Source: an uncultured Acidobacteriota bacterium (GTDB lineage: Bacteria; Acidobacteriota; Terriglobia; UBA7540; JAPUME01). From it: a DNA stretch of 64,000 nucleotides. Positions 34,257 through 64,000 of this stretch are shown piece by piece; the first letter of the stretch is position 1; every line of letters starts with the position of its first letter. Where the stretch lies: the NCBI GenBank assembly GCA_964605715.1, contig CAZSDV010000002.1, forward strand, positions 167 to 64,166. The letters run 5' to 3'. The notes below the pieces were generated by a model. It saw nothing but the letters and a program-made list of their open reading frames with translations, ran no database searches and was not told where the DNA came from. The position numbers were made by a program, and so were the translations under genes.

Positions 34257-35945
34257 CTAACTCAAGTCTCGGGTCCCCAGCCATGTCCCCTTAAACCTCT
34301 TCATTACAGCCCGGACACGTGGGTCCAACTCAGCTCTCTCACGAGAGCTCAATTGCATGGAATTCTGACTAACCTCCACATTCTCCGACTCTTCTACAGA
34401 AACCGAAATCTGAACCGGCTTCCCCAACACTTCAGAACAGATGGTCCGCAACAACTCACGGTTTCCGTGTTCCGTCAGAATATCAAGTGCCCATCGTACT
34501 TCTTCGGAAAATGTAAAACAGGCCTGCCCATCCTGCAGTCGCCATCCAACCAAGTTGTGTTCGAGAAAGTTTCCCAACAGCTTGGAATGATCTTGCACGC
34601 GGTCCCGTATCAACGTCAGTGGTTGTGCATCCTTAAAGGTGGAAGGTTCGGCAGGCGGCGTACTGGTTAGTCCACGCGCGGCATCTGGCTCGGAGGCGCT
34701 AATAGCCGTATCTTGCTTCACGTCTCCGGACAAAGGAGACTTCTCAACTCTACTACCAAACGCAGATCTCGAAGCTGCATTAGTAGGAGTAGATTTTGGG
34801 CCAGTCGCCCCTTTCCCTTTGGTTAATTCGGCCAGGAGAGTCTCCAACGGCTCCAACCTCTGTGCGTGCAAAAGCTTCATCAAGGCGAGCTCCAGGTGAA
34901 AACGCGGCTCTAGGGCATAACGAATATCAGCTTGCGCCCGAAGCATGATCTGCAAAAAGCGGCTTAGATCTTCAGAGCCATGTGCAGCAGCCAATTCTTT
35001 TAGCCGGAGCATGCTCTCTTCTGGCAGAGGAAGCAACTTTGAGTCTGCCCCACACGTTCGGGCAACCATGAGGTTGCGAATATATCGGGTTAATTCAGTT
35101 GCAAGCTGTTGAATTTCAAATCCCTGTTGAATCAATCGTTCCACTAGTTCAAGTACGCGAGCTGCGTCGCCTGCATAAACTGCGTGCATTATCTCTTCAA
35201 GAATCTGATTCGGCACGGCTCCCAACAATTGCCGAAGCGATTCCTCTTTCAACTCTTTCCCGGAAAATGCAATAGCCTGATCAAGTAGCGAAAGGCCATC
35301 TCGAAGGCTCCCCGCTGCAGCTTGAGCAATCAAGCCAAGCGAGGCTGGATCACTTTCAACCCCTTCCTCTCTAGCAACACGCTGAAGCTCTCCTAAAATC
35401 TGCTGGTAATTAACTAATCGGAATGCAAAATGCTGACACCGTGAAAGAATGGTCGTTGGAATCTTGTGGGCCTCAGTTGTCGCCAATATGAACAGAACGC
35501 TTTCGGGTGGCTCCTCCAAGGTCTTAAGGAGCGCATTGAACGCTTCCGGGGTAAGCATATGAACTTCATCAATAATGAAAATCTTTTGACGATCCCGCGA
35601 AGGGAGGTAGCGAACGCTCTCGCGTAATTCCCGAATCTCGTCGATTCCACGGTTCGACGCCGCGTCAATTTCCAATACATCAACAGCTCTCGAGGAGGAA
35701 ATCTCGTGGCAGGGATCACACTCACCGCATGGTGTAATGGTCGGTCCTTGGGCACAATTGAGGGCCTTGGCCAAAATGCGGGCCATAGAGGTCTTACCTA
35801 CCCCTCGCGCACCAGAAAAAAGATACCCGTGCGCTACGCGCTCCCGTGTGATGGCATTCTTCAGCGTGTCGGTAACCAATTTTTGACCGACAACTTCATC
35901 GAACTTCTGAGGTCGGTATTTTCGGGCCAGGACTTCGTAGGCCAT
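34257..35945 (-). CDS. dnaX: DNA polymerase III subunit gamma/tau
   Basis: Starts at MAYEVLARKYRPQKFDEVVGQ (ATG at 35945). Walker A GARGVGKTS, zinc module CGECDPC, and SRC motif. The 41 extra codons in the ORF track (to 36068) run into the SRP RNA and are rejected. Confidence 0.93.
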   Translation of the reverse strand: MAYEVLARKYRPQKFDEVVGQKLVTDTLKNAITRERVAHGYLFSGARGVGKTSMARILAKALNCAQGPTITPCGECDPCHEISSSRAVDVLEIDAASNRGIDEIRELRESVRYLPSRDRQKIFIIDEVHMLTPEAFNALLKTLEEPPESVLFILATTEAHKIPTTILSRCQHFAFRLVNYQQILGELQRVAREEGVESDPASLGLIAQAAAGSLRDGLSLLDQAIAFSGKELKEESLRQLLGAVPNQILEEIMHAVYAGDAARVLELVERLIQQGFEIQQLATELTRYIRNLMVARTCGADSKLLPLPEESMLRLKELAAAHGSEDLSRFLQIMLRAQADIRYALEPRFHLELALMKLLHAQRLEPLETLLAELTKGKGATGPKSTPTNAASRSAFGSRVEKSPLSGDVKQDTAISASEPDAARGLTSTPPAEPSTFKDAQPLTLIRDRVQDHSKLLGNFLEHNLVGWRLQDGQACFTFSEEVRWALDILTEHGNRELLRTICSEVLGKPVQISVSVEESENVEVSQNSMQLSSRERAELDPRVRAVMKRFKGTWLGTRDLS

Positions 35946-36035
35946 AGGGCTGATCAAGAATTGAAGGAGTTCATGCGGGCGAAAACCTGAATAAATGCTC
36001 CTCAAGCATCGACAGATACAACACCGCTCGCGTAG

Positions 36036-36155
36036 GCATTTGCCAGGCTTCGGGTTGGCCTGCAGCACACAGAGAGGACCGCTACCGTTGCTTCCTTCCG
36101 GACCTGGCGGAGTTCACAGACATCTGTTGCACAGATCCCAAAGCCTGGCAAATGC
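36036..36155 (-). ncRNA. ffs: signal recognition particle RNA (small, 4.5S type)
   Basis: The minus strand reads ...CCGCCAGGUCCGGAAGGAAGCAACGGUAGCGG..., the conserved domain IV core. It is closed by a 19-bp terminal helix: GCAUUUGCCAGGCUUUGGG / CCCGAAGCCUGGCAAAUGC, with one G-U pair. About 120 nt, immediately upstream of dnaX, a common bacterial arrangement. Confidence 0.85.
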
Positions 36156-36288: not shown

Positions 36289-36300
36289 GGGTTGAAAGTG

Positions 36301-36377
<77 letters not shown>

Positions 36378-47423: not shown

Positions 47424-47452
47424 TTGACTCCTGATCCCACATTCGGTTAATA
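47424..47452 (+). promoter_or_regulatory. promoter of the riboswitch-btuF-cobO transcript
   Basis: TTGACT (47424-47429), 17 bp spacer, TTAATA (47447-47452), just upstream of the aptamer. Confidence 0.45.
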
Positions 47453-47462
47453 ATGACCGCGA

Positions 47463-47610
47463 ACTTGGTACCAACGGGAAGCCGGTGAAAAACCGGCACG
47501 GCCCCGCCACTGTGAGCGTAGAGGGCCGGAGCAGTACGGGCCACTGGGGTAAATACCCTGGGAAGGCAGCTCTGGTTCAATGAAGCGCAAGTCAGGAGAC
47601 CGACCAAGTA
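47463..47610 (+). promoter_or_regulatory. cobalamin (AdoCbl) riboswitch
   Basis: Core GGUACCAACGGGAAGCCGGUGAAAAACCGGCACGGCCCCGCCACUGUGAGCG, B12 box GGGCCACUGG...CCCUGGGAAGGC, AGUCAGGAGACCGACC, and P1 ACUUGGU/ACCAAGU. Upstream of B12-binding and salvage genes. Confidence 0.9.
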
Positions 47611-47856
47611 ATCCCCAAGCTTGAATCGACCTCGAAGGGGGTGTCGATGAGCATTCTTTACCCTTCATTTTAAAACTTTGGTAAGAGCGCTCTTGCTATC
47701 TTCCCTCGGGAAGTTAGCTTTGTGGATTCCTGGAATATCGGAAGAAGGAAAGGTCATCCCCCTAATACCAGGAAGTCCAGTTGAGGAAAAGGCTAATACA
47801 TGCAAATCCTAGATTTCCATCGTGAGCTTGTGGCATATCCGACGCCGGGTGCATAA

Positions 47857-48741
47857 ATGAAAAAATCAACTAGAAATATGGTGTGGGTTGCGTTGATTTT
47901 CGTTGCTGGCACACAGGGAATGTTCGCTCGCAAACTGACGGATGCATTGAATCGCACTGTAAATCTTCCGGATCGTCCTCAAAGAATTGTTTGTCTTTCC
48001 CCAAGCCTCGCAGAAACAGTTTTCGCATTGGGACTTGACGAATTCGTGGTTGGAGTAACCGATTTTACTGAATACCCACCAAGTGTACCCAGCAAGCCCA
48101 GTGTGGGCGAATTGGTAAATCCGTCTATAGAGAGGCTCATTTCACTTCAACCCGACCTGGTCCTGGCAGAAATGGGCCTGAATCGGCCCGGCTTGATCAT
48201 TCAATTGGAACATCTTGGAATTCCCGTTTTCGTTTTTAATCCACAGAGCTTGAATGAAGTCCTAATAACCATTCAGCAGATCGGTGACATTTTAAATCGG
48301 ACCTCTGAGGCACAGAACCTGGTTAAGCTGTTAATGGAAAGGCGCCAGGAAGTACACCGAAAGGTAAGTAAATTCCCACGGCCAAGGGTCCTTATGGTGG
48401 TCTGGTATTCACCGGTCATCACAGCTGGAGGCAAGGCGTTTGTTACAGATGTGATTTCAGCAGCAGGTGGAGAATCAGTCACGGCGAACATCCCTCAAGC
48501 CTGGCCACAGATAAGCCTTGAAGAAGTTCTACGCCGTGAACCGGATATTCTACTCCTTGTGCAAGGACCTCATGGTGGAATGACGCTTGAGGAGTTAAGA
48601 AACCACGAGGGGTGGAGTCGACTAGGCGCTGTTATCCAAAATCGAGTGGTTTATATGGGTCAGAATATGGAACACCCTAGTCCTCTCGTTTTTGATGCTC
48701 TAGAAGAATTGGCAAGAAAGCTTCATCCAAAAGCATTTTAA
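47857..48741 (+). CDS. btuF: cobalamin/siderophore-type ABC transporter periplasmic binding protein (BtuF-like)
   Basis: 294 aa. Signal peptide. PBP type 8 pattern PQRIVCLSPSLAETVFALG. Riboswitch and btuCD context. Confidence 0.8.
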   Translation: MKKSTRNMVWVALIFVAGTQGMFARKLTDALNRTVNLPDRPQRIVCLSPSLAETVFALGLDEFVVGVTDFTEYPPSVPSKPSVGELVNPSIERLISLQPDLVLAEMGLNRPGLIIQLEHLGIPVFVFNPQSLNEVLITIQQIGDILNRTSEAQNLVKLLMERRQEVHRKVSKFPRPRVLMVVWYSPVITAGGKAFVTDVISAAGGESVTANIPQAWPQISLEEVLRREPDILLLVQGPHGGMTLEELRNHEGWSRLGAVIQNRVVYMGQNMEHPSPLVFDALEELARKLHPKAF

Positions 48742-48759
48742 CCAGATTGAGGTGGAGAT

Positions 48760-49317
48760 ATGAAAAAGAAAATCACGCGGGTTGGTAGCTCAGCAAGAAA
48801 GCAGAAAGGGCTAATCATAGTAAATACAGGAGATGGAAAGGGCAAGACCAGTGCGGCCTTAGGAGTGGCCCTGCGAGCTTCAGGCTACGGTATGAAAGTG
48901 GCTATGATCCAGTTCTTTAAGGGAAAGTGGAAGTACGGCGAACTTAGAAGTGCTCCGAAGCTTGAAACTTTTGAAATCCTGCCTATGGGTAAGGGGTTTA
49001 CCTGGGAAAGTGACGATATCGAGATCGACAAGAACATGGTTCGAGCCGCATGGCAAGAAGCCAAGAAACGTATACATTCGGGAGAATACAAAGTGTTTAT
49101 TCTGGATGAGATCAACTACGCGCTAAGCTATGGGTATCTTCCGGTTGATGACGTCATTAATTGCCTAAAGACCAAGCCCCCAATGCTCCACATCATTCTA
49201 ACCGGACGGGATGCAAAACCTGAAATTATTGAAGTGGCAGATCTTGTAACAGAAATGCGCGAAGTTAAGCATCCATTTTCACGGGGAATTTCGGCTCAAA
49301 AAGGAATCGAGTTCTAG
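48760..49317 (+). CDS. cobO: cob(I)yrinic acid a,c-diamide adenosyltransferase (CobO/BtuR type)
   Basis: 185 aa. P-loop TGDGKGKTSAALG and the ILDEINYAL and VKHPF motifs. Confidence 0.88.
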   Translation: MKKKITRVGSSARKQKGLIIVNTGDGKGKTSAALGVALRASGYGMKVAMIQFFKGKWKYGELRSAPKLETFEILPMGKGFTWESDDIEIDKNMVRAAWQEAKKRIHSGEYKVFILDEINYALSYGYLPVDDVINCLKTKPPMLHIILTGRDAKPEIIEVADLVTEMREVKHPFSRGISAQKGIEF

Positions 49318-49346
49318 GCTTGTTGCGTTAGGAAGAACACAAAAAC

Positions 49347-49495
49347 TCGCCGGCAGGATGAATGAAAAGCGCAGTGAAATTCCGCTACTGCCGCTAACTG
49401 TAAGCAACGGTCAAATCTGCAAAACCACTACCCGCAAAGGTGGAAAAAATGGGTATTCCGAAACGTTGCAAGTTGAGGGACTGGTCCCGTTGGCA
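49347..49495 (+). promoter_or_regulatory. second, divergent cobalamin-riboswitch-like element
   Basis: GCAGUGAAAUUCCGCUACUGCCGCUAACUGUAAGC parallels the GGUGAAAUCC...CCCGC.ACUGUAA core, and ACCACUACCC...GGUGGAAAA parallels the B12 box. Several normally invariant positions differ. Located directly upstream of the TonB receptor-btuC-btuD genes. Confidence 0.5.
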
Positions 49496-49533
49496 TATCC
49501 CCAGTCCTCTCTTCCGAGGGTGAAAGAGCACGC

Positions 49534-52011
49534 ATGTCACTTTTGAAGTGTTGCCAAAGTCGCTTCTATTTTTTCCTTTTGATATTCGTTTACTTTGTCA
49601 CTTTGGGACCATCGTTGCCTGTCTCTGGAAAAAACCTAAAAGGAGCGGTCCGTGGGCGGGCGCTTGATCCGCTAGGAGATGTGGTCCCATATGCAAAGGT
49701 TGACCTACTTCAAAAATCAATCGTGATTCAATCAACAACGACGGACCGAGAAGGGAGATTTGAATTTAACGTTGTAATTTCAGGTCGCTATTACATCCGG
49801 ATCAAAGCGACAGGATTTCAGGTCAAGGAAAGCGAGACCGTATTTCTACCACCGATGGGAATCGTCCAAATCGATCTAGCCCTCCCCATCGGCACCTTAC
49901 GCCAACAATTCGTTGTGTCGGCTACAGGCACAGAAGTGTCTGCATCCCAGGTTGGTGCCTCAGTGAGCGTGATCGATAATCAGCGACTCGAATTAGCTAA
50001 CAAGTTAGACGTACTAGAAGTTTTGCGTTCGGTCCCAGGCGTGCAGGTCGTGCAAACCGGCCAGCGGGGAGGGGTAACATCACTGTTTATCCGTGGTGGC
50101 AACGCTAACTTCAATAAAGTGCTCATCGATGGGGTCCCTGCCAATGACATCGGAGGTAGTTTTAATTTCGCGAATTTATCAACAACGGGAGTGGAACAAC
50201 TAGAATTATTGCGAAGCCCCAACAGTGTTCTTTACGGCACAGACTCCCTAGGAAGCGTCGTCAATATTACTACCCGTCGTGGTGCTTCTAGTGTTCCGGA
50301 GTTCACATATTCTGCCGACGGGGGGAATTTCCGAACGGCTCGGCAAGAAATTTCCTTGGCTGGTGCACTTCGCCAAATTGACTATTTTTCTGATTTATCG
50401 TACTTCAAGACACGCAATGCTCTTCCTAATAGTGCCTTCCGCAATCAAACCTACTCTGGAAATTTTGGTTGGAAGGCTAATCGTACAACAGATATCCGAC
50501 TTAATATCCGACATACTTCCGTTGCGTTGGGTCTGCCAAGCGCTCTCGATTTCTACGGAATTCCGGACGACTCATCTCAGCGGGACCGCACCACGCGTAT
50601 CGGTGTAACCGCTAGAAATCAAACCACCACGCGCTGGCATAACCTAGTGCGGTTCGCCTCCAATGGGCTCAATTTGAATTTTACAAATCCCACACCAACG
50701 GGGGAAGCATTCGACCCCTTTGGCTTTGGGGCTAACTTCCTCGGCAATCAGGTTACGATTAAAGCGGCCAACGGGTTTAGCGTAAATGGCAGGGCTATCC
50801 TCGATTTCGGTGGCATCTACCCACAGCTTTTTGATGTCAACACATTGAGGCGCTCTCTCTACACCCAATCAGATTTCAACCTTAAACCTGACCTAAAAAC
50901 TACCTTTGGTTTTCGCTTTGAAAACACGCATGGGTTTACTGCAACTTCTAGTTCTCGGTCAACCACGGAGCGAAAGAGCCTTGGGGCTTTCATGCAAGCT
51001 CACGGACGGATTTGGCGTCGTACTTACCTTACGGCGGGGTTAGGCCTCGAAAAAAATGCCATCTTCGGATTTGCTGTAACACCACGTGTTTCGTTGGGTT
51101 ACTACCTGAGACAAGGTGCCTCAGGGACATTTTTAAATAGTACGAAACTGAGATTTAATTTTGGAACTGGCATTAAGGAGCCAAGTGTCTTTCATGAAAG
51201 TTCTTCTCTCTTTAGTCTTCTAACGGAACTCACAAATGGTAGTTCCTCGATCTCACAGTTCGGTGTTTTTCCAATCGGACCTGAGAAAAGCCGGAGTTTT
51301 GATTTCGGATTTGACCAAAAATTATGGGACGGGCGTGCTAGCCTAGGAATCAACTTTTTTCATAACCAATTTTTTGATCTGATCGAGTTTGTTGCCAAAG
51401 ATACTCTTCCTCAACTTGGAGTACCTATAGCGGCCGCGGTGGCAACTCCCTTTGGAGCTGCAATTAACTCTTCTTCTTTTTATGCCCTTGGCATGGAAAC
51501 GGAATTCCTAGCGCGACTTAGCAGCGGATTGCATGTACAAGGGCAGTATACCTACCTGAAGGCAGCGGTGAATGAATCCTTTTCCAGTGGCGCTATTCAG
51601 CCAGCTATTAACCCCTTGTTTCCTGACATCCCTATTGGTGCATTTTCACCCCTGATAGGAGGTAGGCCTTTCCGGCGCGCGCCACATTCAGGAAGTTTCG
51701 AGGTAGGGTATTCGAATGGAAACTTAGCGTTCATGTTCAGTGGTTACTTTGTTGGGCGCCAAGATGGCAGTAGCTTTCTTTCTGACCCGCTTTTCGGAAA
51801 CTCACTGCTCTTGCCAAATCATAATTTCATCTCGGGTTACCAGAAAATTGATTGGAGCGGATATTATTCTTTTGACCACGGGATTGCATTTTATACCAGC
51901 ATCGAAAACCTTCTTAGCCAGCATTACCAGCCGGTACCAGGATTCCCCGCTTCCCCACTAACGTTCCGTACCGGCCTCAAGATTAGGCTAGGAGGAGAAA
52001 ACTGGAGATAA
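49534..52011 (+). CDS. TonB-dependent receptor with N-terminal carboxypeptidase-regulatory-like domain
   Basis: 825 aa. Signal peptide, a CarboxypepD_reg-like beta-sandwich (GRFEF...GRYYIRIKATGF), a plug domain (RSVPGVQV...IRGG) and a C-terminal beta-barrel. Context suggests a BtuB-like role. Confidence 0.85.
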   Translation: MSLLKCCQSRFYFFLLIFVYFVTLGPSLPVSGKNLKGAVRGRALDPLGDVVPYAKVDLLQKSIVIQSTTTDREGRFEFNVVISGRYYIRIKATGFQVKESETVFLPPMGIVQIDLALPIGTLRQQFVVSATGTEVSASQVGASVSVIDNQRLELANKLDVLEVLRSVPGVQVVQTGQRGGVTSLFIRGGNANFNKVLIDGVPANDIGGSFNFANLSTTGVEQLELLRSPNSVLYGTDSLGSVVNITTRRGASSVPEFTYSADGGNFRTARQEISLAGALRQIDYFSDLSYFKTRNALPNSAFRNQTYSGNFGWKANRTTDIRLNIRHTSVALGLPSALDFYGIPDDSSQRDRTTRIGVTARNQTTTRWHNLVRFASNGLNLNFTNPTPTGEAFDPFGFGANFLGNQVTIKAANGFSVNGRAILDFGGIYPQLFDVNTLRRSLYTQSDFNLKPDLKTTFGFRFENTHGFTATSSSRSTTERKSLGAFMQAHGRIWRRTYLTAGLGLEKNAIFGFAVTPRVSLGYYLRQGASGTFLNSTKLRFNFGTGIKEPSVFHESSSLFSLLTELTNGSSSISQFGVFPIGPEKSRSFDFGFDQKLWDGRASLGINFFHNQFFDLIEFVAKDTLPQLGVPIAAAVATPFGAAINSSSFYALGMETEFLARLSSGLHVQGQYTYLKAAVNESFSSGAIQPAINPLFPDIPIGAFSPLIGGRPFRRAPHSGSFEVGYSNGNLAFMFSGYFVGRQDGSSFLSDPLFGNSLLLPNHNFISGYQKIDWSGYYSFDHGIAFYTSIENLLSQHYQPVPGFPASPLTFRTGLKIRLGGENWR

Positions 52012-52112
52012 TGGAAGGCAAGGTAGAGGTATCTACTGGGCAAAATAAGTTGGATGTCTATTTCAGGTGAAAATTGAATTTTAAACCCGAAAGGTTCTCC
52101 AGGGAATCGGCC

Positions 52113-53174
52113 ATGTTAGATCGCAGCGGGAACGCTACAGCGCGCTATCGTTTTGGACTTTTTTTCCTCGCGGGACTCCTCCTACTCTCTACCATCCTTG
52201 CGGTTACGATCGGGGTTGTGGAGGTTTCTCCACGCACTATGCTTTCTGTGTTACTTAACCGGATAGGGTTTACTGACTTTCCTCAGATGTGGGCGCCTAG
52301 CGATGAAGTTATTATCTTGCATCTCCGTCTGCCCCGTGTTTTAGGAGCCGCACTTGTCGGGGCGGCCCTTTCGGTTGCAGGCATTCTTTTTCAGGGACTC
52401 TTAAGGAACCCCATGGCTGACCCGTATGTAATCGGCACTTCGGGGGGGGCGGCACTGGGCGCAAGCATCGGCCTAGTGCTCTCCAATTATTTTTCCATCT
52501 TGGGTTTCAGTGCAATCCCAACCTTTGCATTTCTAGGGGCAACAGGAACCATGATACTCGTTTACCACCTAGCAAAAGTGGGGGGACGCACGCCGGTGGT
52601 GAATATTCTCTTGGCTGGGTTTTCGGTAAGCGTAATTCTCGGGTATACCATGTCATTTCTGTTAATCGTGAACGATCGATTGCAGGTAAACGTGCGGATT
52701 CTCTACACGTGGTTGTTAGGAGGAGTTTCGATCTCTCGCTGGCCCCAGGTGGGGATCATTGCTTTGATAGTTGTTTTGGGTATTATCCTGGCATTTGTGT
52801 TCGCTAGAACCTTAAATGTTCTTTCATTAGGGGAGGAGCATGCTGCCCACCTAGGTATTCCTGTTGAGCGTCACAAAGCTGCACTAATTGCGATTGGCTC
52901 TCTATTGACAGCGGCTGCCGTTACTACGGCGGGGCTGGTCGGATTCGTTGGTTTAATCGTTCCTCATTTCCTCCGCTTGCTGTTTGGTCCAGATCACACT
53001 CGATTGCTGCCATTGGGAGCTCTAGGGGGAGCTGCCTTTCTAGTTTTTGCTGACTTACTAGCACGAATTGCCATGCCTCCTACAGAATTGCCCGTCGGAA
53101 TCTTGACCGCCTTTGTGGGGGGGCCAGCTTTCCTGTTTTTATTACGCCGGGCAAAGCGTGAGTATCGCCTTTGA
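52113..53174 (+). CDS. btuC: FecCD/BtuC family ABC transporter permease
   Basis: FecCD pattern: RLPRVLGAALVGAALSVAGILFQGLLRNPMADPYVIG, and the C-terminal GILTAFVGGPAFLFLL. ATG at 52113 is preferred over the TTG at 52074. Confidence 0.88.
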   Translation: MLDRSGNATARYRFGLFFLAGLLLLSTILAVTIGVVEVSPRTMLSVLLNRIGFTDFPQMWAPSDEVIILHLRLPRVLGAALVGAALSVAGILFQGLLRNPMADPYVIGTSGGAALGASIGLVLSNYFSILGFSAIPTFAFLGATGTMILVYHLAKVGGRTPVVNILLAGFSVSVILGYTMSFLLIVNDRLQVNVRILYTWLLGGVSISRWPQVGIIALIVVLGIILAFVFARTLNVLSLGEEHAAHLGIPVERHKAALIAIGSLLTAAAVTTAGLVGFVGLIVPHFLRLLFGPDHTRLLPLGALGGAAFLVFADLLARIAMPPTELPVGILTAFVGGPAFLFLLRRAKREYRL

Positions 53175-53190
53175 CTCTTGGAAATTAACC

Positions 53191-54009
53191 ATGAAGACAA
53201 TTGAGGTTCACAAACTCTGTTTTCAATACAAACACCACCCGGTGCTGGAAAGAGCTTCTTTGGGCATTAAGGCCGGAGAACGCGTGGCCTTACTTGGCCC
53301 CAACGGCGCAGGGAAAACGACTTTATTAAAACTTATCAGCGGGGCGCTAGCTCCGGCCCGGGGAACAGTTAGTCTTAATGGACTTACACTAAGCAGCATT
53401 TCAAAGAGAAGCTTGGCACGAACAATCGCTATCGTCCCACAGGAATTCAGTGTGCCTTTTGCATTTACCGCCCAGGAAATCGTTGAGCTCGGGAGGACGC
53501 CTTATCTGGGCCTTCTGCATGGTGTGAGGGCCGATGACCGCCTTGCCGTCGAGAAAGCCATGGCATTGACCGATACGATTCCGCTCGGGCAACGCATTTT
53601 CAATGAGTTGAGCGGAGGCGAACGCCAACGTGTCATGATTGCCATGGCACTGGCACAGGAACCGAAAATTCTGCTTTTGGATGAGCCAACTCAACAACTG
53701 GATATTGCTCGCCAAGCTGGAATTCTAGATTTAATCGTAAATCTAAATCAAGAGCAAGGGCTGACGGTACTGTGTGCGATCCATGATCTAAACCTCGCGG
53801 GCAGCTACTTCCATCGACTAATCGTTCTTCATGGTGGTTCAGTTCTGGCGGATGGGCCCCCGACTGATGTGCTACGTTCAGACCTTCTTGCGAAAGCGTA
53901 CGATGGCCCAATAGAGGTGGCATTAATCGAGAACCGTCGTATACCAGTGGTCTTGTCTCCATCCGAGCCTAATATTAAGCTGACGAAGAGAACAGAGTTT
54001 GACCACTGA
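53191..54009 (+). CDS. btuD: ABC transporter ATP-binding protein (BtuD/FecE type)
   Basis: Starts MKTIEVHKL. Walker A GPNGAGKTT, signature LSGGERQR, Walker B LLLDEPT. The ORF-track start at 53113 would overlap btuC by 62 nt. Confidence 0.9.
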   Translation: MKTIEVHKLCFQYKHHPVLERASLGIKAGERVALLGPNGAGKTTLLKLISGALAPARGTVSLNGLTLSSISKRSLARTIAIVPQEFSVPFAFTAQEIVELGRTPYLGLLHGVRADDRLAVEKAMALTDTIPLGQRIFNELSGGERQRVMIAMALAQEPKILLLDEPTQQLDIARQAGILDLIVNLNQEQGLTVLCAIHDLNLAGSYFHRLIVLHGGSVLADGPPTDVLRSDLLAKAYDGPIEVALIENRRIPVVLSPSEPNIKLTKRTEFDH

Positions 54010-55126: not shown

Positions 55127-58100
55127 ATGAGAAACTCAATACTCTTGTCCCTATTTTCGTCGGCGATATTTTTCTCGGGTTGCTCCGTTGAGGATCGATC
55201 GCCAGGGCCCCTTTCCCCCGAGCAAGCCCTAAAAAGCTTCCAGATCCACCCGGATTTCCGCATAGAGATTTTTGCTACTGAACCCCATGTAATAGATCCG
55301 GTTGAATTGGTATTCGACGAGGACGGTCGGGCATTCGTAGCTGAAATGCTTGATTACCCAATTGATCCAGTTATAGGCAACCCACCCCGAAGTCGCATCC
55401 GCTTGCTGGAAGATTTTGATAAAGACGGCCGAGTGGATCACTCACGGATCTTTGCAGAGAACCTTTTGCAAGTAACGAGCATGCTCCCCTGGAAAGGTGG
55501 CCTTATCGTTACTTCAGCTCCAGATATCCTCTATTTAAAAGACACCGATGGTGACCTTAAGGCTGATCTTCGTCAGGTTCTTTTTACTGGATTCTCCATG
55601 GGTGACCCTCAGGCACGCATTACGAATCTCCGGTTTGGTATTGACAATTGGATCTATGCATCTAATTATGGCCAGCCAGGAACTATCACATCACCAGCAT
55701 TCCCCGGCGCACAATCTGTATCAGTTTTTGGAGCTGACTTTCGTTTCCAAATTGACCAAGGTCGATTCGAGGCAGCTTCTGGTACGGCACAGTTTGGCCT
55801 AGCCATTGATGACTGGGGTCGTCGCTTTATTACGCAAAATACAGTCCACGTTCGCCACGTCGTCATTCCCAGACGTTACTTGGAGAGAAATCCTTACCTT
55901 TCACGTGGCAACACCATGCAAGATATCTCCGACCATGGACGTCCTACAGCCCAGATTTTTCAGCTTACCTCCCCGCAGGACTGGAGGAAAACAAGAACCC
56001 AGATTCGCCAGCGCCGCTTCGATGAGTTAGATGTGGATCGCACTGAAGTGGTAAGCGGCTATTTCACTGGAGCTTCAGGTGGGACTTTTTATACAGGGGA
56101 CACGTTCCTTGAAAAATACCGTGGGAATTTGTTTACCGGTGATGTAGTAGGAAATCTGGTTCATCGTGACCTTATAGTTCCAGAAGGACCTATCTTTCGT
56201 GCTGAGCGTGCGCCCGAGGAACGGGACCGAGAATTTCTAGTTTCAACCGATCCATGGTTTCGTCCTTGTAACTTCACTACTGGTCCAGACGGGAACCTGT
56301 ATATGATCGATATGTATCGCGAGTTCATTGAGACACCTGCTTCAATTCCTTCGAGTCTACTAAAAAACATGAACACGTTCAGCGGGGACGAGCTCGGACG
56401 AATTTACCGTATCGTTCGAGTAGATTCGCCCCCAGTACAGCCCATTGAACCTCGCCTCTCCGATACAGCAACACAAATGCTAGTTCGACTTCTTGAACAG
56501 GAGAATAACTGGTGGAGAATAACGGGACACCGAATGCTACTCGAAAAAAAAGATCTCTCAGCAATTCCAGTACTACGGAGTTTAGTGCAAGGAAACCCTC
56601 CCCCTACACGCGTGCATGCACTCTACATTCTCGATGCTTACTCTGCTCTGGATCAACAACTAGTTGAGGTTGCCCTGGGGGATCCAGCCTCAGGAGTTCG
56701 GGAAAACGCTCTTAGGCTAGCTGAAAACTATCCTGAGCTTGAAACTCGCGTGGCGGAAATGACAAATGATCCGTCTTCTCGAGTTGCACTGCAACTCGCT
56801 TTAAGTTTAGGGGAATTCTCTGGCCAGGAAAGCTCTAAGGCACTTACCACGTTGGCCTCAAGATATGGCCATGACCCATGGTTTCAAACAGCAATTTTGA
56901 GTTCTAAGACCGGGTCCTCGCCCCAGCTCCTTCAAGCCATGCTTCACCAGGAAAATTTCTTTGTTGAACCGAATTCAGGAAAAGAGAAATTCTTAGAAGA
57001 GTTAACAGCAATCATTGGAGCACGATCCGAGCCACAACAAGTCGCGCAGCTTATAAACTTGCTTTACCAAGAGCAACAGCTGCAGGCTGAAGCTTGGCAG
57101 GTCGCCGGATTGAACGGGCTAGCACGAGGGCTTGATCTTGCAGGGACCCATCGGTCTAGAATTCGCGTTGAAGATATGGTGCTGACACGGTGGTTGCAAA
57201 GTGGATCCGAAAAGGTTCAAGTGGCAGCACTAAACCTTGCACGCCATTTCACAAATTCGTATCTCATCGCGGTATCTTCCCGCCAGGCAAAAGATGTAAG
57301 CCTTCCTATGGAAAGACGCAGAGCGGCAATCCAGTCCCTAACAGGAGGAGAGCTCCTTAACGTCCAAAAAGTGTTTGAGCAATTACTTGATTTAGAAATG
57401 GATCCGGAACTCCGAAAAACATTAATTTTCTCACTCGGACAATTCGATGACCCGAGCGTGACGGATATTTTGATTTCCCATTGGAAAAGGCTTAGCCCTA
57501 ACGCGCGCAAACACGTTCTGGACGTTTTGCTGGGGCATCAAACCCACATGCTTCAGCTTTTAGAAGCAATTAGAGATGGGAGAATTGAGCGCGCAGCCCT
57601 CGATCCCAGCCGACGCGAAAAACTCCTGCACCACTCTGATTTCAAGATTAAGGAGCAGGCCGCACGATTATTCCCAAGCGATGAGGCGCCGATCGATAGG
57701 CCGAAGCCTTGGGAAAACTATCGTTCGGTACTTGACATCAATGGAGATAGTGCACGGGGCAGGCCAATTTTTGAGGAGAGGTGTGGGGCCTGCCACTTGC
57801 CGAAAAAGAATAAACAAGTGGGCCCTGACCTAGCGCGCGTGAAAGGTAACACCGGAGCCCAATTACTACAGAAGATTCTTGATCCCAGTCAAGAGATCGA
57901 CCCCAAGTATACAAATTATATAATCACGACTACCGATGGGCTGATACACGATGGCGTGATATTCTCCGAAACTCCGGGCACATTGACTTTGTGGAGTGGA
58001 GAAGAGGAGGACAACGCGATCCTTCGTTCAAACATTTTGAACATTCGTGCCTCGAGCATATCATTGATGCCAGAGGGATTAGAAAAAGACCTCAGCCAGC

Positions 58101-58156
58101 AGGATTTGGCTGACATACTTGCATTTCTGCAAGGAGGCACCCTCCATAACCATTGA
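55127..58156 (+). CDS. PVC-type heme-binding CxxCH protein (putative membrane-bound dehydrogenase domain + HEAT repeats + C-terminal cytochrome c), lipoprotein
   Basis: 1009 aa. Lipobox FFSGC. N-terminal FATEP...DPV.L.FDEDGR..V.EM.DYP pattern. HEAT-like middle. C-terminal CGACH ... M ligand region. Confidence 0.8.
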   Translation: MRNSILLSLFSSAIFFSGCSVEDRSPGPLSPEQALKSFQIHPDFRIEIFATEPHVIDPVELVFDEDGRAFVAEMLDYPIDPVIGNPPRSRIRLLEDFDKDGRVDHSRIFAENLLQVTSMLPWKGGLIVTSAPDILYLKDTDGDLKADLRQVLFTGFSMGDPQARITNLRFGIDNWIYASNYGQPGTITSPAFPGAQSVSVFGADFRFQIDQGRFEAASGTAQFGLAIDDWGRRFITQNTVHVRHVVIPRRYLERNPYLSRGNTMQDISDHGRPTAQIFQLTSPQDWRKTRTQIRQRRFDELDVDRTEVVSGYFTGASGGTFYTGDTFLEKYRGNLFTGDVVGNLVHRDLIVPEGPIFRAERAPEERDREFLVSTDPWFRPCNFTTGPDGNLYMIDMYREFIETPASIPSSLLKNMNTFSGDELGRIYRIVRVDSPPVQPIEPRLSDTATQMLVRLLEQENNWWRITGHRMLLEKKDLSAIPVLRSLVQGNPPPTRVHALYILDAYSALDQQLVEVALGDPASGVRENALRLAENYPELETRVAEMTNDPSSRVALQLALSLGEFSGQESSKALTTLASRYGHDPWFQTAILSSKTGSSPQLLQAMLHQENFFVEPNSGKEKFLEELTAIIGARSEPQQVAQLINLLYQEQQLQAEAWQVAGLNGLARGLDLAGTHRSRIRVEDMVLTRWLQSGSEKVQVAALNLARHFTNSYLIAVSSRQAKDVSLPMERRRAAIQSLTGGELLNVQKVFEQLLDLEMDPELRKTLIFSLGQFDDPSVTDILISHWKRLSPNARKHVLDVLLGHQTHMLQLLEAIRDGRIERAALDPSRREKLLHHSDFKIKEQAARLFPSDEAPIDRPKPWENYRSVLDINGDSARGRPIFEERCGACHLPKKNKQVGPDLARVKGNTGAQLLQKILDPSQEIDPKYTNYIITTTDGLIHDGVIFSETPGTLTLWSGEEEDNAILRSNILNIRASSISLMPEGLEKDLSQQDLADILAFLQGGTLHNH

Positions 58157-61672: not shown

Positions 61673-61990
61673 ATGGGTTGCTCAACGCCAAATATACCGA
61701 GTCCTCCTGCCCCAGGGCAGCGGGTGGTCAAATGCGTCAAATTCCAGAAAGAACTTCCAGGACTGGACGCACCCCCCTGGCCAGGAGAGTTAGGTAAGCG
61801 GCTCTTCGAAAACGTATCTGCTCAAGCCTGGGACTTATGGAAAGAACACGCCAAGATGGTGCTAAACGAATATCGAATAGCTCCTTGGACCAAAGAAGGG
61901 AGGGAGATGATTCAGGACCAACTGGAGAAATTTTTCTTCGGCGAAGGTGCTGCGCTTCCTCCAGGTTATGTTCCTCAGCAAGCTAAATAG
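61673..61990 (+). CDS. yggX: oxidative damage protection protein / Fe(2+)-trafficking protein (YggX family)
   Basis: Homology block VKCVKFQKELPGLDAPPWPGELGKRLFENVSAQAWDLWKEHAKMVLNEYR mirrors E. coli YggX. The true start may lie downstream of the listed ATG. Confidence 0.8.
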   Translation: MGCSTPNIPSPPAPGQRVVKCVKFQKELPGLDAPPWPGELGKRLFENVSAQAWDLWKEHAKMVLNEYRIAPWTKEGREMIQDQLEKFFFGEGAALPPGYVPQQAK

Positions 61991-62073: not shown

Positions 62074-63375
62074 TCACACTATAGGCAAGGTAGGGCTTAT
62101 TCGAAATCGGAGTTTTTCTTGCGCTCTACGGAGATGCCTTTCAACCTCTGTCGGTGAGCCAGCCTGGGCAAAGATAAAACCTAGGTAGCTCGCACCTTCA
62201 GGAAGAGGAACTAGCCGCTGCTGGGTTTTCGCAGTAATGCGGATCTCCTTGATCCCTGTGGCTTGGCATGCTTCCTCCTCACCTTCTACCCCTTCATAAA
62301 ACCCTTCACGAGGAATCGGGATCATCATTACTCCAGAAGCGGTGCTCACTCGGCTAACTTTTGATATGTCCTCACCAAGACCCTGTCGGATTATCAACTC
62401 TTCAAGTGAAAGTTGTTGCATTTCCCGCTCGAAGAGAAGCGAGCGAGCGCAAAGCCCTCCAATTGAACGGGCTGCCACTTCAAGGATCCAAACTCCCTCC
62501 TCATTCAACCTTACCTCAGCATGGAGAGGACCATGCGATATGCCTATCTTCTCTGATGCTTCCTGGACAGCCTGGATAATTCTTTGCTGAGAATCCTGCG
62601 GGAGCCTTGAAGGGGTGACGTATAGAGTTTCTTCGAAATAGGGACCCTGGAGCGAGTCGGGCTTATCAAATAGTGCCAGAACTTTCAGCTTGCCTTGTGT
62701 GACCATTCCTTCTAGGGCATATTCGGAACCAGGAATAAACTTTTCCACTTGAAGAAACCGGCTTGTCTCCTCACCTAGTACCTGCACACTTGGCGATAGA
62801 AGCAGCGATCTAATCCTGTTAAAGGATTCCACGAATTCACGACTGCTATTAGCTCGAATCACTCCGCGGCTGCCCGATAGTGCTAGAGGCTTAAGTACGC
62901 ATGGAAACTCAACTTGAGAGGTAAGGCTGCCAGGATTCTCATCTATAGAAAATCTTCGAAAGGATGGGATCTTGAGGCCTGCAGATTTGAGCCGCACGCG
63001 AGCTTGGTATTTATCCCGACAAACCTCTACCGCGTCAGGAGAATTGTATGTCAAGCCTAGCTGGCGACATGCATGTGCAGCGGTAACCGTGGCCCGGTCA
63101 CCAAGGGCTACCACCGCGTCAACGGGGTAGCTTCGTGCATACTCAATAATAGCTTGAGCGGATTCACAGGGATTCTCAAATCGCAGAGCAAGAGCACCAT
63201 CCCGCCACGGATCGTCAAGCTTCCAGCAGCGGTCTGAACCAAAGGCCACCCTGAGATCTAACTTTTCTGCCGCCTCGACAAAAGCACGAGTCTGGTACCC
63301 CGTGGTGGTACACAAAAGAAGTAATCTCTTCTGTCGTATTTTTTGTGTGGCATGTTGAGGAATCTTAGAGTGCAT
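62074..63375 (-). CDS. ATP-grasp domain protein (carboxylate-amine ligase-like)
   Basis: 433 aa. Pre-ATP-grasp N-domain, VLKPLALSGSRGV, EKFIPGSEYALEG, and HAEVRLNEEGVWILEVAARSIGG, which is typical of ATP-grasp_4-type ligases. Substrate unknown. Confidence 0.8.
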   Translation of the reverse strand: MHSKIPQHATQKIRQKRLLLLCTTTGYQTRAFVEAAEKLDLRVAFGSDRCWKLDDPWRDGALALRFENPCESAQAIIEYARSYPVDAVVALGDRATVTAAHACRQLGLTYNSPDAVEVCRDKYQARVRLKSAGLKIPSFRRFSIDENPGSLTSQVEFPCVLKPLALSGSRGVIRANSSREFVESFNRIRSLLLSPSVQVLGEETSRFLQVEKFIPGSEYALEGMVTQGKLKVLALFDKPDSLQGPYFEETLYVTPSRLPQDSQQRIIQAVQEASEKIGISHGPLHAEVRLNEEGVWILEVAARSIGGLCARSLLFEREMQQLSLEELIIRQGLGEDISKVSRVSTASGVMMIPIPREGFYEGVEGEEEACQATGIKEIRITAKTQQRLVPLPEGASYLGFIFAQAGSPTEVERHLRRAQEKLRFRISPTLPIV

Positions 63376-63416
63376 CGTGTTGGCAAGATTCTTGCCTGCC
63401 CCCTGCTATCGCACAT

Positions 63417-64000
63417 TCAGAAAAGAGCAACCTGCTCTTCGGTAGGCTCAGCTCAGCAATACCAAGGTTCATCCATATATGGAATCGCCGCCCGAGACAA
63501 CGGCACCTGTGACACGCAAGGTTCACGAAGATTTTCCTCGGTGCCATCATTAGTACGGTTCCAAATTGCACTGAAAATTTCCCGCCGACTTGAGTTCCTT
63601 GCCTTCCCTTCCTTGATCAGCTTCAAAACATCAGCTTGCAAACTCTCTACTTGCGATTCAGAATTTTTCCAGCGGTAGCTAAGAGCTACTGAATCAAATC
63701 CCTCCAAAATACTTAATGTCTCCGAAAATTCAAGTAGCTTTGAGCCAGCTGGAATTAAGAGTCGGATAGCTAATTGAATAGGCGCAACATTTTCCACCAG
63801 GTCAAGTTCTAGTAAATCGTTAAGAAGCTTTTGATAATCTTCACGCGAGGTCCAAGGGGTGAACGGCACGAAAGTGGGCGCCAAGATAAGGTCCGCCTGC
63901 CGGAACCGGCGGACCACTTCAAAAAAATCATCACGCGTATGATTTTTTGCCAGCAGCCTGAGGGTGTGGTCATCAACTGACTCAACCGCGCTCGTAACAA
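63417..64000 (-). CDS. radical SAM protein, C-terminal part, predicted selenoprotein with CUAEP tail (gene runs off the right window edge)
   Basis: The frame is open from the window edge: ...VTSAVESVDDHTLRLLAKNHTRDDFFEVVRRFRQADLILAPTFVPFTPWT..., a radical-SAM-like C-terminal half. The ORF track stops at TGA 63455-63453 after ...PYMDEPWYC. Read-through gives C-U-A-E-P-TEEQVALF and then a TGA at 63419-63417. A SECIS-like hairpin follows the first TGA. Confidence 0.65.
63422..63440 (-). promoter_or_regulatory. candidate bacterial SECIS hairpin
   Basis: The mRNA reads UGA GCUGAGCCUACC GAAGAGC-AGGUU-GCUCUUU. This is a 7-bp stem (one G-U pair) starting 13 nt after the UGA. Counting the U of UGA as +1, the apical-loop GGU falls at +24 to +26, comparable to G23/U24 of the E. 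coli fdhF SECIS. Confidence 0.5.

Follow-up and report, generated by a model that had tools for sequence, protein, structure and literature searches.

The question raised by this locus is whether a gene that seems to stop at a TGA codon is in fact read through it. The locus lies at the end of a stretch of 64,000 nt, hereafter the window (contig CAZSDV010000002.1 of an uncultured Acidobacteriota bacterium), where the 3' part of a radical S-adenosylmethionine (SAM) gene is encoded on the minus strand at 63417..64000. The mechanical list of open reading frames (ORFs) closes this gene at 63453, i.e. at the first TGA, and an earlier, sequence-only reading of the window had suggested that this codon encodes selenocysteine (Sec) and that the frame runs on to a second TGA, past a hairpin resembling a bacterial selenocysteine insertion sequence (SECIS). 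On re-reading, the minus strand gives ...GAT GAA CCT TGG TAT TGC TGA GCT GAG CCT ACC GAA GAG CAG GTT GCT CTT TTC TGA, translated in frame as ...MDEPWYC, the first TGA, AEPTEEQVALF and the second TGA; the positions claimed for the two TGA codons (63455-63453 and 63419-63417) and the frame between them were exact. Our reading, to which comparison with other species leads us to give a probability of roughly 0.9, is that the UGA at 63455-63453 is recoded as Sec, directed by a SECIS hairpin in the coding tail.

The segment in the window would then comprise 181 C-terminal codons, the Sec codon, an 11-codon tail and a stop, an assignment based on the translation and on the family match described below. 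The UGA (63453..63455, minus strand) would be residue 462 of 473. It is directly preceded by the TGC codon of Cys461 (63458-63456, minus strand) and followed by the translated tail AEPTEEQVALF (63420..63452, minus strand) and the second TGA (63417..63419, minus strand). In all likelihood, ordinary gene callers thus shorten the product by 12 residues, the full protein having 473 residues and ending ...EPWY-C-U-AEPTEEQVALF. The window end cuts the gene, and 838 nt of its 5' part fall outside. A look-up of the ATP-grasp protein encoded next to it led to an identical marine-metagenome contig (L001, 2499-3920), on which the gene is complete. There it comprises 473 codons, of which the TGA is codon 462, and it supplied the full-length read-through protein. 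The closest named relative belongs to the Acidobacteriota and shares 72% identity.

The earlier reading had pointed to a family named 'CUAEP/CCAEP-tail radical SAM (seleno)protein'. This family exists as NCBIfam NF040546, an equivalog model with a cut-off of 500 bits, and in a hidden Markov model search the full-length read-through protein reaches 596.4 bits against it. The fragment in the window scores 197.9 bits, end-to-end over profile positions 277-467. Very few radical SAM selenoproteins are known to us, and this family is among them. Its cluster-binding motif CX3CX2C is found at C184-L-H-L-C188-R-H-C191 (L001 numbering, outside the window) and is invariant in family alignments, and the C-[U/C]-A-E-P tail appears in the window as WYC-TGA-AEP, with alternation of Sec and Cys among members. 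The Sec reading is what the curated model already encodes, and the identification itself is unsurprising. The family has been described as uncharacterised and counted with those rare selenoproteins that contain a CU motif, which has been linked to heavy-metal-handling proteins (Haft & Gwadz, 10.1101/2022.07.06.499078). This is the sole paper found that names the family, and it agrees with the earlier statement that no function has been established; the family's name does not appear in a review of prokaryotic selenoproteomes from 2026 (PMC13188914).

An open run of 11 codons past a stop is a trivial chance expectation, and since the hairpin alone can likewise be explained by chance, the case for Sec is carried wholly by comparison. 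A scan of one genome per GTDB species returned at least 597 species with a relative, from which 80 loci were fetched. The codon that follows EPW[Y/F]C in 78 loci of other species is TGA in 65, TGC in nine and TGT in four. At every locus, TGA and TGC/TGT alike, this codon is followed in frame by A/S-E-P-x-x-x-Q, and in the mixed alignment of Sec and Cys forms the A, E, P and Q (+7) are invariant. After the TGA, codon positions 1 and 2 are fixed and position 3 varies (GCG/GCC/GCA/GCT, GAG/GAA, CCN). Loci with an 11-residue tail like that of the window stop at the same position by TGA, TAG or TAA, which identifies the second TGA as the real stop. Homologues that end at the Cys with no such tail would have spoken against Sec; in a database of 5.8 billion proteins, the gene calls of all 120 best homologues end at ...EPWYC, and at the DNA level the 78 loci show the in-frame A-E-P-x-x-x-Q beyond. 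The tails of 76 loci fall into two lengths, short ones of 11-13 residues ending in F, L, V or I and long ones of 18-32 residues ending ...[AS][ED][AS]F[VI]. Tail length largely tracks the register of the hairpin (5-nt vs 4-nt loop).

The hairpin itself (63422..63440, minus strand) lies inside the coding tail, with the 5' arm GAAGAGC at 63440-63434, the loop AGGUU at 63433-63429 and the 3' arm GCUCUUU at 63428-63422. Counting the U of UGA as +1, it starts 12 nt past the UGA, spans +16 to +34 and carries GGU at +24 to +26, in agreement with the sequence and GGU position first proposed; ViennaRNA also folds it. The likeness to the geometry of the fdhF SECIS, as first proposed, was checked against the published consensus for bacterial SECIS elements. 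This consensus, as summarized from the model of Zhang & Gladyshev, comprises a stem of 4-16 bp closed by a loop of 3-9 nt, an energy of at most -7.5 kcal/mol, a G within the first two loop positions that is usually followed by G or U, and 16-37 nt from the UGA to the apical loop (PMC13188914). The window hairpin passes all of these, with 8 bp and a 3-nt loop GGU (or 7 bp and the 5-nt AGGUU), a spacing of 19-20 nt from UGA to loop and -7.9 kcal/mol for the hairpin alone.

Across the other loci the hairpin follows the Sec codon. No insertions or deletions occur from +1 to +36 among 77 loci, and the hairpin position is thus strictly kept. Two register classes can be distinguished. Class A, to which the window belongs, comprises 31 loci with a 5-nt loop AGGUN/AGUUN and mostly short tails; class B comprises 33 loci with a 4-nt loop AGUU and mostly long tails. 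Pairing in the Sec forms extends to 91.7% of cells in class A and 88.7% in class B, compensatory changes on both sides are seen in four of the seven pairs in each class, and neither the pairing nor the covariation score was reached by any of 500 shuffles, with slid controls all much lower in both classes. The 13 Cys-form loci, in turn, are 48% and 37% paired on the two structures, which is the shuffle level, and the hairpin is lost in all five Cys clades. Sec forms have a median local minimum free energy (+13 to +38) of -10.5 kcal/mol and Cys forms one of -5.2 kcal/mol (Mann-Whitney p = 2e-8, uncorrected for phylogeny). The loop reads A-G-[G/U]-U in 64 of 64 Sec forms, CAA (the synonymous Gln codon) and CAG-C being confined to Cys forms, and none of the 13 Cys loci passes a strict bulge-free SECIS test. 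The expectation that orthologous loci would conserve the hairpin is thereby borne out: it keeps its position, shows compensatory changes in TGA forms and has decayed in Cys forms.

Several observations weigh against recoding. The 80 loci were picked by similarity to a Sec-form query and the statistics ignore phylogeny. When the sequence of the window is folded by itself, the 45-nt segment has a dinucleotide-shuffle z of -0.38, with 66 of 200 shuffles folding at least as well, and random synonymous recoding of AEPTEEQVALF yields a stem of equal or greater length in 16% of trials; Glu codons (GAR) are by nature complementary to Leu/Phe codons (CUY/UUC). These single-sequence statistics are not significant, hence our reliance on the comparative tests. 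Only 36 of the 64 Sec loci pass the strict bulge-free test mentioned above. No SECIS family was returned by Rfam, either in a gathering-threshold scan of the whole window or in a permissive scan of 63300-63600, where the sole match was a chance snoRNA (E 1.5); Rfam models of bacterial SECIS elements are lineage-specific, and this negative carries no information. Finally, selA, selB and selD are absent from the 30 largest ORFs of the window in NCBIfam scans, which gave housekeeping genes only (including murC, murG, thiC, moaA, nadA, argJ, lpxB, dnaX, ABC exporters and B12 uptake), and ARAGORN detected no tRNA-Sec in the 64 kb, the only tRNA being tRNA-Arg. A 64-kb window says nothing on Sec machinery elsewhere in the genome, and Acidobacteria and Chloroflexi are recorded as selenoprotein users (PMC1794560).

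Two other explanations of the TGA have to be weighed against this background. If it were a genuine stop, the protein would end ...EPWYC (gene callers and RefSeq annotate such truncated forms, e.g. in Thermomicrobium roseum), and the conserved stretch downstream would be due to chance or to some RNA or regulatory element. No Sec machinery was seen in the window, and the hairpin could serve as an attenuator or terminator-like element before the ligase gene that follows. However, the hairpin lacks a U-tract and has disappeared in just those loci that no longer have the TGA, 13 species carry TGC or TGT at this codon and then the same A-E-P...Q peptide, the variation past the TGA is codon-like in its third positions, and all three stop codons are found at the same downstream position, which makes this explanation extremely unlikely. 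Read-through by a near-cognate or suppressor tRNA (Trp, Cys or Gly), or a gene decaying after loss of the Sec trait in this organism, is in our view very unlikely as well, even though UGA is established as the leakiest stop codon: Cys is the only sense alternative at the column, a hallmark of Sec sites, a SECIS-type hairpin with an invariant G/U in its loop co-varies with the TGA, and the window copy, 98-100% identical to independent metagenome contigs, has both its hairpin (7-8 bp) and its tail intact. The alternation of 65 TGA with 13 TGC/TGT at one column and the conserved tail behind it thus leave selenocysteine, as first suggested, the best supported reading.

A neighbour-joining tree with Fitch parsimony gives at least five changes from Sec to Cys and places Sec at the root of the sample, with the reservation that the tree is rough and the sample Sec-biased. 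Sec therefore looks ancestral in this sample and repeatedly lost to Cys (at least five losses), as far as these alignments go. One TGA-form member is found in a cultured organism, on the megaplasmid of Thermomicrobium roseum DSM 5159 (NC_011961.1, 796591-798027; L083 7935-9440). RefSeq ends this protein at ...ESWFC, and the in-frame continuation up to the next TGA is AEPLEDPSGPVASQVRMVDQPLR, with a hairpin GGACCC-GUC-GGGUCC at +18 to +32. Its neighbours are a pyridoxal-phosphate-dependent aminotransferase and a major facilitator superfamily (MFS) transporter, not a ligase and YggX.

If the protein is a selenoprotein, the next question is what its Cys-Sec tail does. The second-best model for the full-length protein is that of ArsL (NF040542; 269.3 bits over residues 8-412), the enzyme of arsinothricin biosynthesis, and a plasmid-borne protein with an RCCLKC tail is 35% identical over 410 residues, the alignment stopping at residue 410. 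On this homology, the CUAEP/CCAEP protein is a sister family of ArsL, which may be a new point, ArsL being its closest characterised relative. We know of no CX3CX2C radical SAM enzyme other than ArsL that makes a 3-amino-3-carboxypropyl radical, the product of cleavage at the C-gamma-S bond of SAM. ArsL splits SAM into 5'-methylthioadenosine and this radical, and the cysteines of its RCCLKC tail bind As(III) and are needed for formation of the C-As bond, though not for SAM cleavage (10.1101/2024.02.01.577332; 10.64898/2026.04.29.721666). The tails of ArsL and of the CUAEP/CCAEP family are each cysteine-rich with a vicinal pair, so both families carry a vicinal chalcogen pair.

In place of the window protein, a homologue of the Cys form with 59% identity was modelled with AlphaFold2. 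The model has a mean predicted local distance difference test score (pLDDT) of 84.5 and a predicted template modelling score of 0.87, and its tail residues 450-462 fall below a pLDDT of 50; this indicates that the tail is a flexible arm, predicted to be disordered. Foldseek returned generic class-B-like radical SAM enzymes with an N-terminal Rossmann-like domain (AprD4, TsrM, OxsB, MgmA and MiaB), and a sequence search of the PDB with the radical SAM protein gave no match.

The gene neighbourhood adds further partners. Located 41 nt past the radical SAM stop, on the same strand, is a gene for a 433-residue ATP-grasp protein of the L-amino-acid-ligase type (62074..63375, minus strand; Pfam ATPgrasp_N, ATP-grasp_4 and LAL_C2). 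It matches the solved L-amino acid ligase BL00235 (PDB 3VOT) over its full length (E 8.5e-39, residues 14-423) and also BacD (about 3.5e-20), and it falls under every NCBIfam equivalog cut-off. Of the 80 loci, 55 have a homologue in the fetched flank, mostly at 46-65% identity; its usual place is directly downstream of the radical SAM gene, and in some loci it lies upstream or on the opposite strand. By homology and co-occurrence, the gene is an L-amino-acid-ligase-type enzyme and a conserved partner of the radical SAM gene. Convergent to it is a 105-residue YggX-type protein of Fe(2+) trafficking and protection from oxidative damage (61673..61990, plus strand; NF003817, 114.6 bits vs a cut-off of 74; Pfam Iron_traffic). 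YggX genes recur in 44 of the 80 loci and take one of two arrangements, lying downstream in convergent orientation or immediately upstream in the orientation of the radical SAM gene. All of radical SAM gene, ligase and YggX are retained by the two closest relatives for which long contigs exist, and the ligase is kept in L087-L089.

Other iron-sulfur (Fe-S) genes recur near the gene. In L087/L088 (481-7262), which carry a 71%-identical relative (P0010), the trio of radical SAM, ligase and YggX genes stands divergent beside a complete suf operon with an Rrf2 regulator, and in L004 and L024 the radical SAM gene has SufB or SufS nearby. Six loci (L005, L008, L011, L014, L024 and L047; e.g. L011 5315-5905) encode an NfuA-type Fe-S carrier (Fe-S_biosyn and NifU domains) directly upstream of it; these are of Methylomirabilota and Latescibacterota type, with the ligase further upstream. 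A DUF169 protein (COG2043) of about 237 residues with several conserved Cys directly follows the radical SAM gene in 11 loci, often before the ligase (e.g. L018 7603-8316 and L058 7504-8253).

Plasmid loci offer two further arrangements. Plasmid pB2.1 of Priestia aryabhattai (L084 2635-8008) carries an RCCLKC-tail radical SAM gene close to genes for an ATP-grasp protein (22% identity with the window ligase), an ArsR/SmtB regulator and an aquaporin; the ArsL sister family may therefore have an ATP-grasp partner as well. Among plasmid homologues of the window ligase, the best are encoded on a Priestia megaterium plasmid (L085 2548-11236), in a phosphonate-peptide-like cluster with a phosphoenolpyruvate mutase family protein, split thiamine pyrophosphate enzymes, two ATP-grasp ligases, an M20 peptidase and an MFS transporter.

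Three candidates from the neighbourhood were set aside. Thioredox_DsbH, encoded upstream in L001, was rejected as a partner, being present only in the clade of the window (L001 and L089) and in none of the 80 GTDB loci. Clustering of aconitase and glucose-6-phosphate dehydrogenase near the gene was judged to be lineage synteny. A system of ribosomally synthesized and post-translationally modified peptides, in which the radical SAM and ATP-grasp enzymes would act on a precursor peptide, is not supported, no conserved small ORF having come out of the neighbourhood clustering, which covered ORFs of 80 residues and longer.

Taken as an analogy with ArsL, these partners suggest a mechanism in which the flexible Cys-Sec arm would bring a thiophilic atom, be it a chalcogen, a metalloid or a soft metal, to the [4Fe-4S]/SAM site, the downstream L-amino-acid ligase would condense the resulting amino acid into a dipeptide, and YggX or NfuA would keep the Fe-S cluster maintained in aerobes. 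This ArsL-like enzyme with an atom-presenting arm, a ligase and Fe-S helpers is the mechanism that we prefer, tentatively and at well below even odds. A more ambitious version holds that radical SAM protein, ligase and YggX/NfuA form a widespread, unrecognised pathway, in which a C-Se, C-S, C-As or other soft-element bond would be made on a Sec-held atom and the ligase would yield a dipeptide of a 2-amino-4-X-butanoate; radical SAM relatives are found in at least about 600 species-level genomes, mainly of Acidobacteriota, Methylomirabilota, Latescibacterota and Chloroflexota, but we hold this version, built by analogy throughout, to be a long shot.

A number of findings speak against the atom-presenting arm. 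The protein fails the ArsL model itself, with 269.3 bits against a cut-off of 450, and the RCCLKC motif with its three As(III)-binding cysteines is not present, the tail reading YC-U-AEP; with C-U or C-C before A-E-P, it offers two chalcogen ligands vs three in RCCLKC. Three further positions, C38, C87/C88 and C278 (L001 numbering, outside the window), are conserved family-wide and are V, F and V in the ArsL-family protein, and these cysteines, judged from conservation, might combine with the C-U tail into an additional site for a metal, a cluster or redox chemistry. Arsenic-related neighbours are nearly absent (aquaporin in 0 of 80 loci, an ArsR-like gene in 1 of 80; arsM and arsQ were not searched for with sequences of their own), and YggX, NfuA and SUF neighbours fit Fe-S biology as much as natural-product chemistry.

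The same observations give room to a redox role, in which the Cys-Sec dyad would bind no substrate but, by analogy with mammalian thioredoxin reductase, form a redox-active selenenylsulfide on a mobile arm and shuttle electrons or an H atom so as to quench or resolve a radical intermediate, with the family-specific cysteines as partner. The vicinal C-U in a tail predicted to be flexible, the three extra conserved Cys that ArsL-like proteins are without, the failure to find metalloid-resistance genes in 80 neighbourhoods and the frequency of Fe-S helper genes near the gene would all suit such a role, as would the interchange of Sec and Cys, which is typical of redox sites (PMC1794560). Yet the closest characterised homologue, ArsL, binds its substrate with a vicinal-Cys tail, CU motifs cluster in heavy-metal-handling proteins (Haft, 10.1101/2022.07.06.499078), and 11 to 32 conserved residues extend beyond the dyad, which is penultimate in thioredoxin reductase. 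We consider the redox role unlikely, while keeping it as a serious competitor of the atom-presenting arm.

Three features were not found described in the searchable literature: the presence of the ligase and YggX/NfuA around the gene, the existence of two SECIS registers, and the repeated losses of Sec to Cys. The first and the last of these may be new. For annotation, the consequence is that gene callers drop 12 residues, including the probable catalytic selenocysteine, from essentially all close relatives in public databases. For function, the kinship with ArsL and the links to L-amino acid ligase and Fe-S helpers make the question directly testable. Should the ArsL analogy hold, non-canonical radical SAM chemistry would be extended to a new element or substrate and the contribution of selenium revealed; should the pathway version be true, a selenoenzyme would produce a new class of organo-chalcogen or organo-metalloid amino-acid metabolite.

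The remainder of the window contains several features that do not touch this locus. Other genes with an in-frame TGA were sought across the window, and none was convincing. A cobalamin riboswitch (47449-47622, plus strand; 107 bits) lies upstream of a B12-uptake-like cluster (47857-54009), which includes a TonB-dependent receptor (49534-52011) and a BtuC-like permease (52074-53174). The bacterial small signal recognition particle (SRP) RNA (36045-36143, minus strand) is located directly upstream of dnaX (34257-36068, minus strand), whose mechanical ORF start overlaps the RNA; the real dnaX start is probably about 41 codons downstream of the mechanical one. A tRNA-Arg(ACG) (36300-36376, plus strand), the only tRNA in the window, adjoins the SRP RNA. 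In addition, a PVC-type heme-binding CxxCH protein of 1009 residues (55127-58156, plus strand; Piru_Ver_Nterm and C-terminal heme-binding domain) provides a small hint on the lineage or lifestyle of the organism.

How, then, does this locus compare with known systems? Within NF040546, the window gene is an ordinary member from a marine metagenome source, with no difference at the level of the family. The hairpin resembles the fdhF-type bacterial SECIS in lying directly 3' of the UGA within the coding sequence and in combining a 7-8 bp stem with a small loop of G followed by G or U; it differs in that no bulged U is evident in the window hairpin, and the CUAEP/CCAEP family differs further in its two registers and in the A-C stem mismatch of many long-tail members. 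The ligase shares the three-domain ATP-grasp architecture of BL00235 and BacD, but it is coupled to a radical SAM selenoprotein and not to a known antimetabolite pathway. In mammalian thioredoxin reductase, a pyridine-nucleotide disulfide oxidoreductase, a Gly-Cys-Sec-Gly sequence forms the C-terminal redox tail. The likeness to this enzyme lies in the vicinal Cys-Sec on a flexible C-terminal extension and in the Cys-for-Sec variants of other lineages, whereas fold and cofactors are unrelated, the present protein being a radical SAM enzyme, and the dyad is not penultimate, with 11-32 residues beyond it; with its radical SAM fold and 11 residues past the Sec, the window protein does not have a tail of the thioredoxin-reductase type. 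ArsL is the closest of these systems, with homology over about 410 residues, an N-terminal Rossmann-like domain joined to a radical SAM core, and a vicinal chalcogen pair on the C-terminal tail (CC in ArsL, CU or CC in the CUAEP/CCAEP family), and the CUAEP/CCAEP protein is set apart from it by an extra linker of about 45 residues before the tail and by the selenocysteine that the tail contains.

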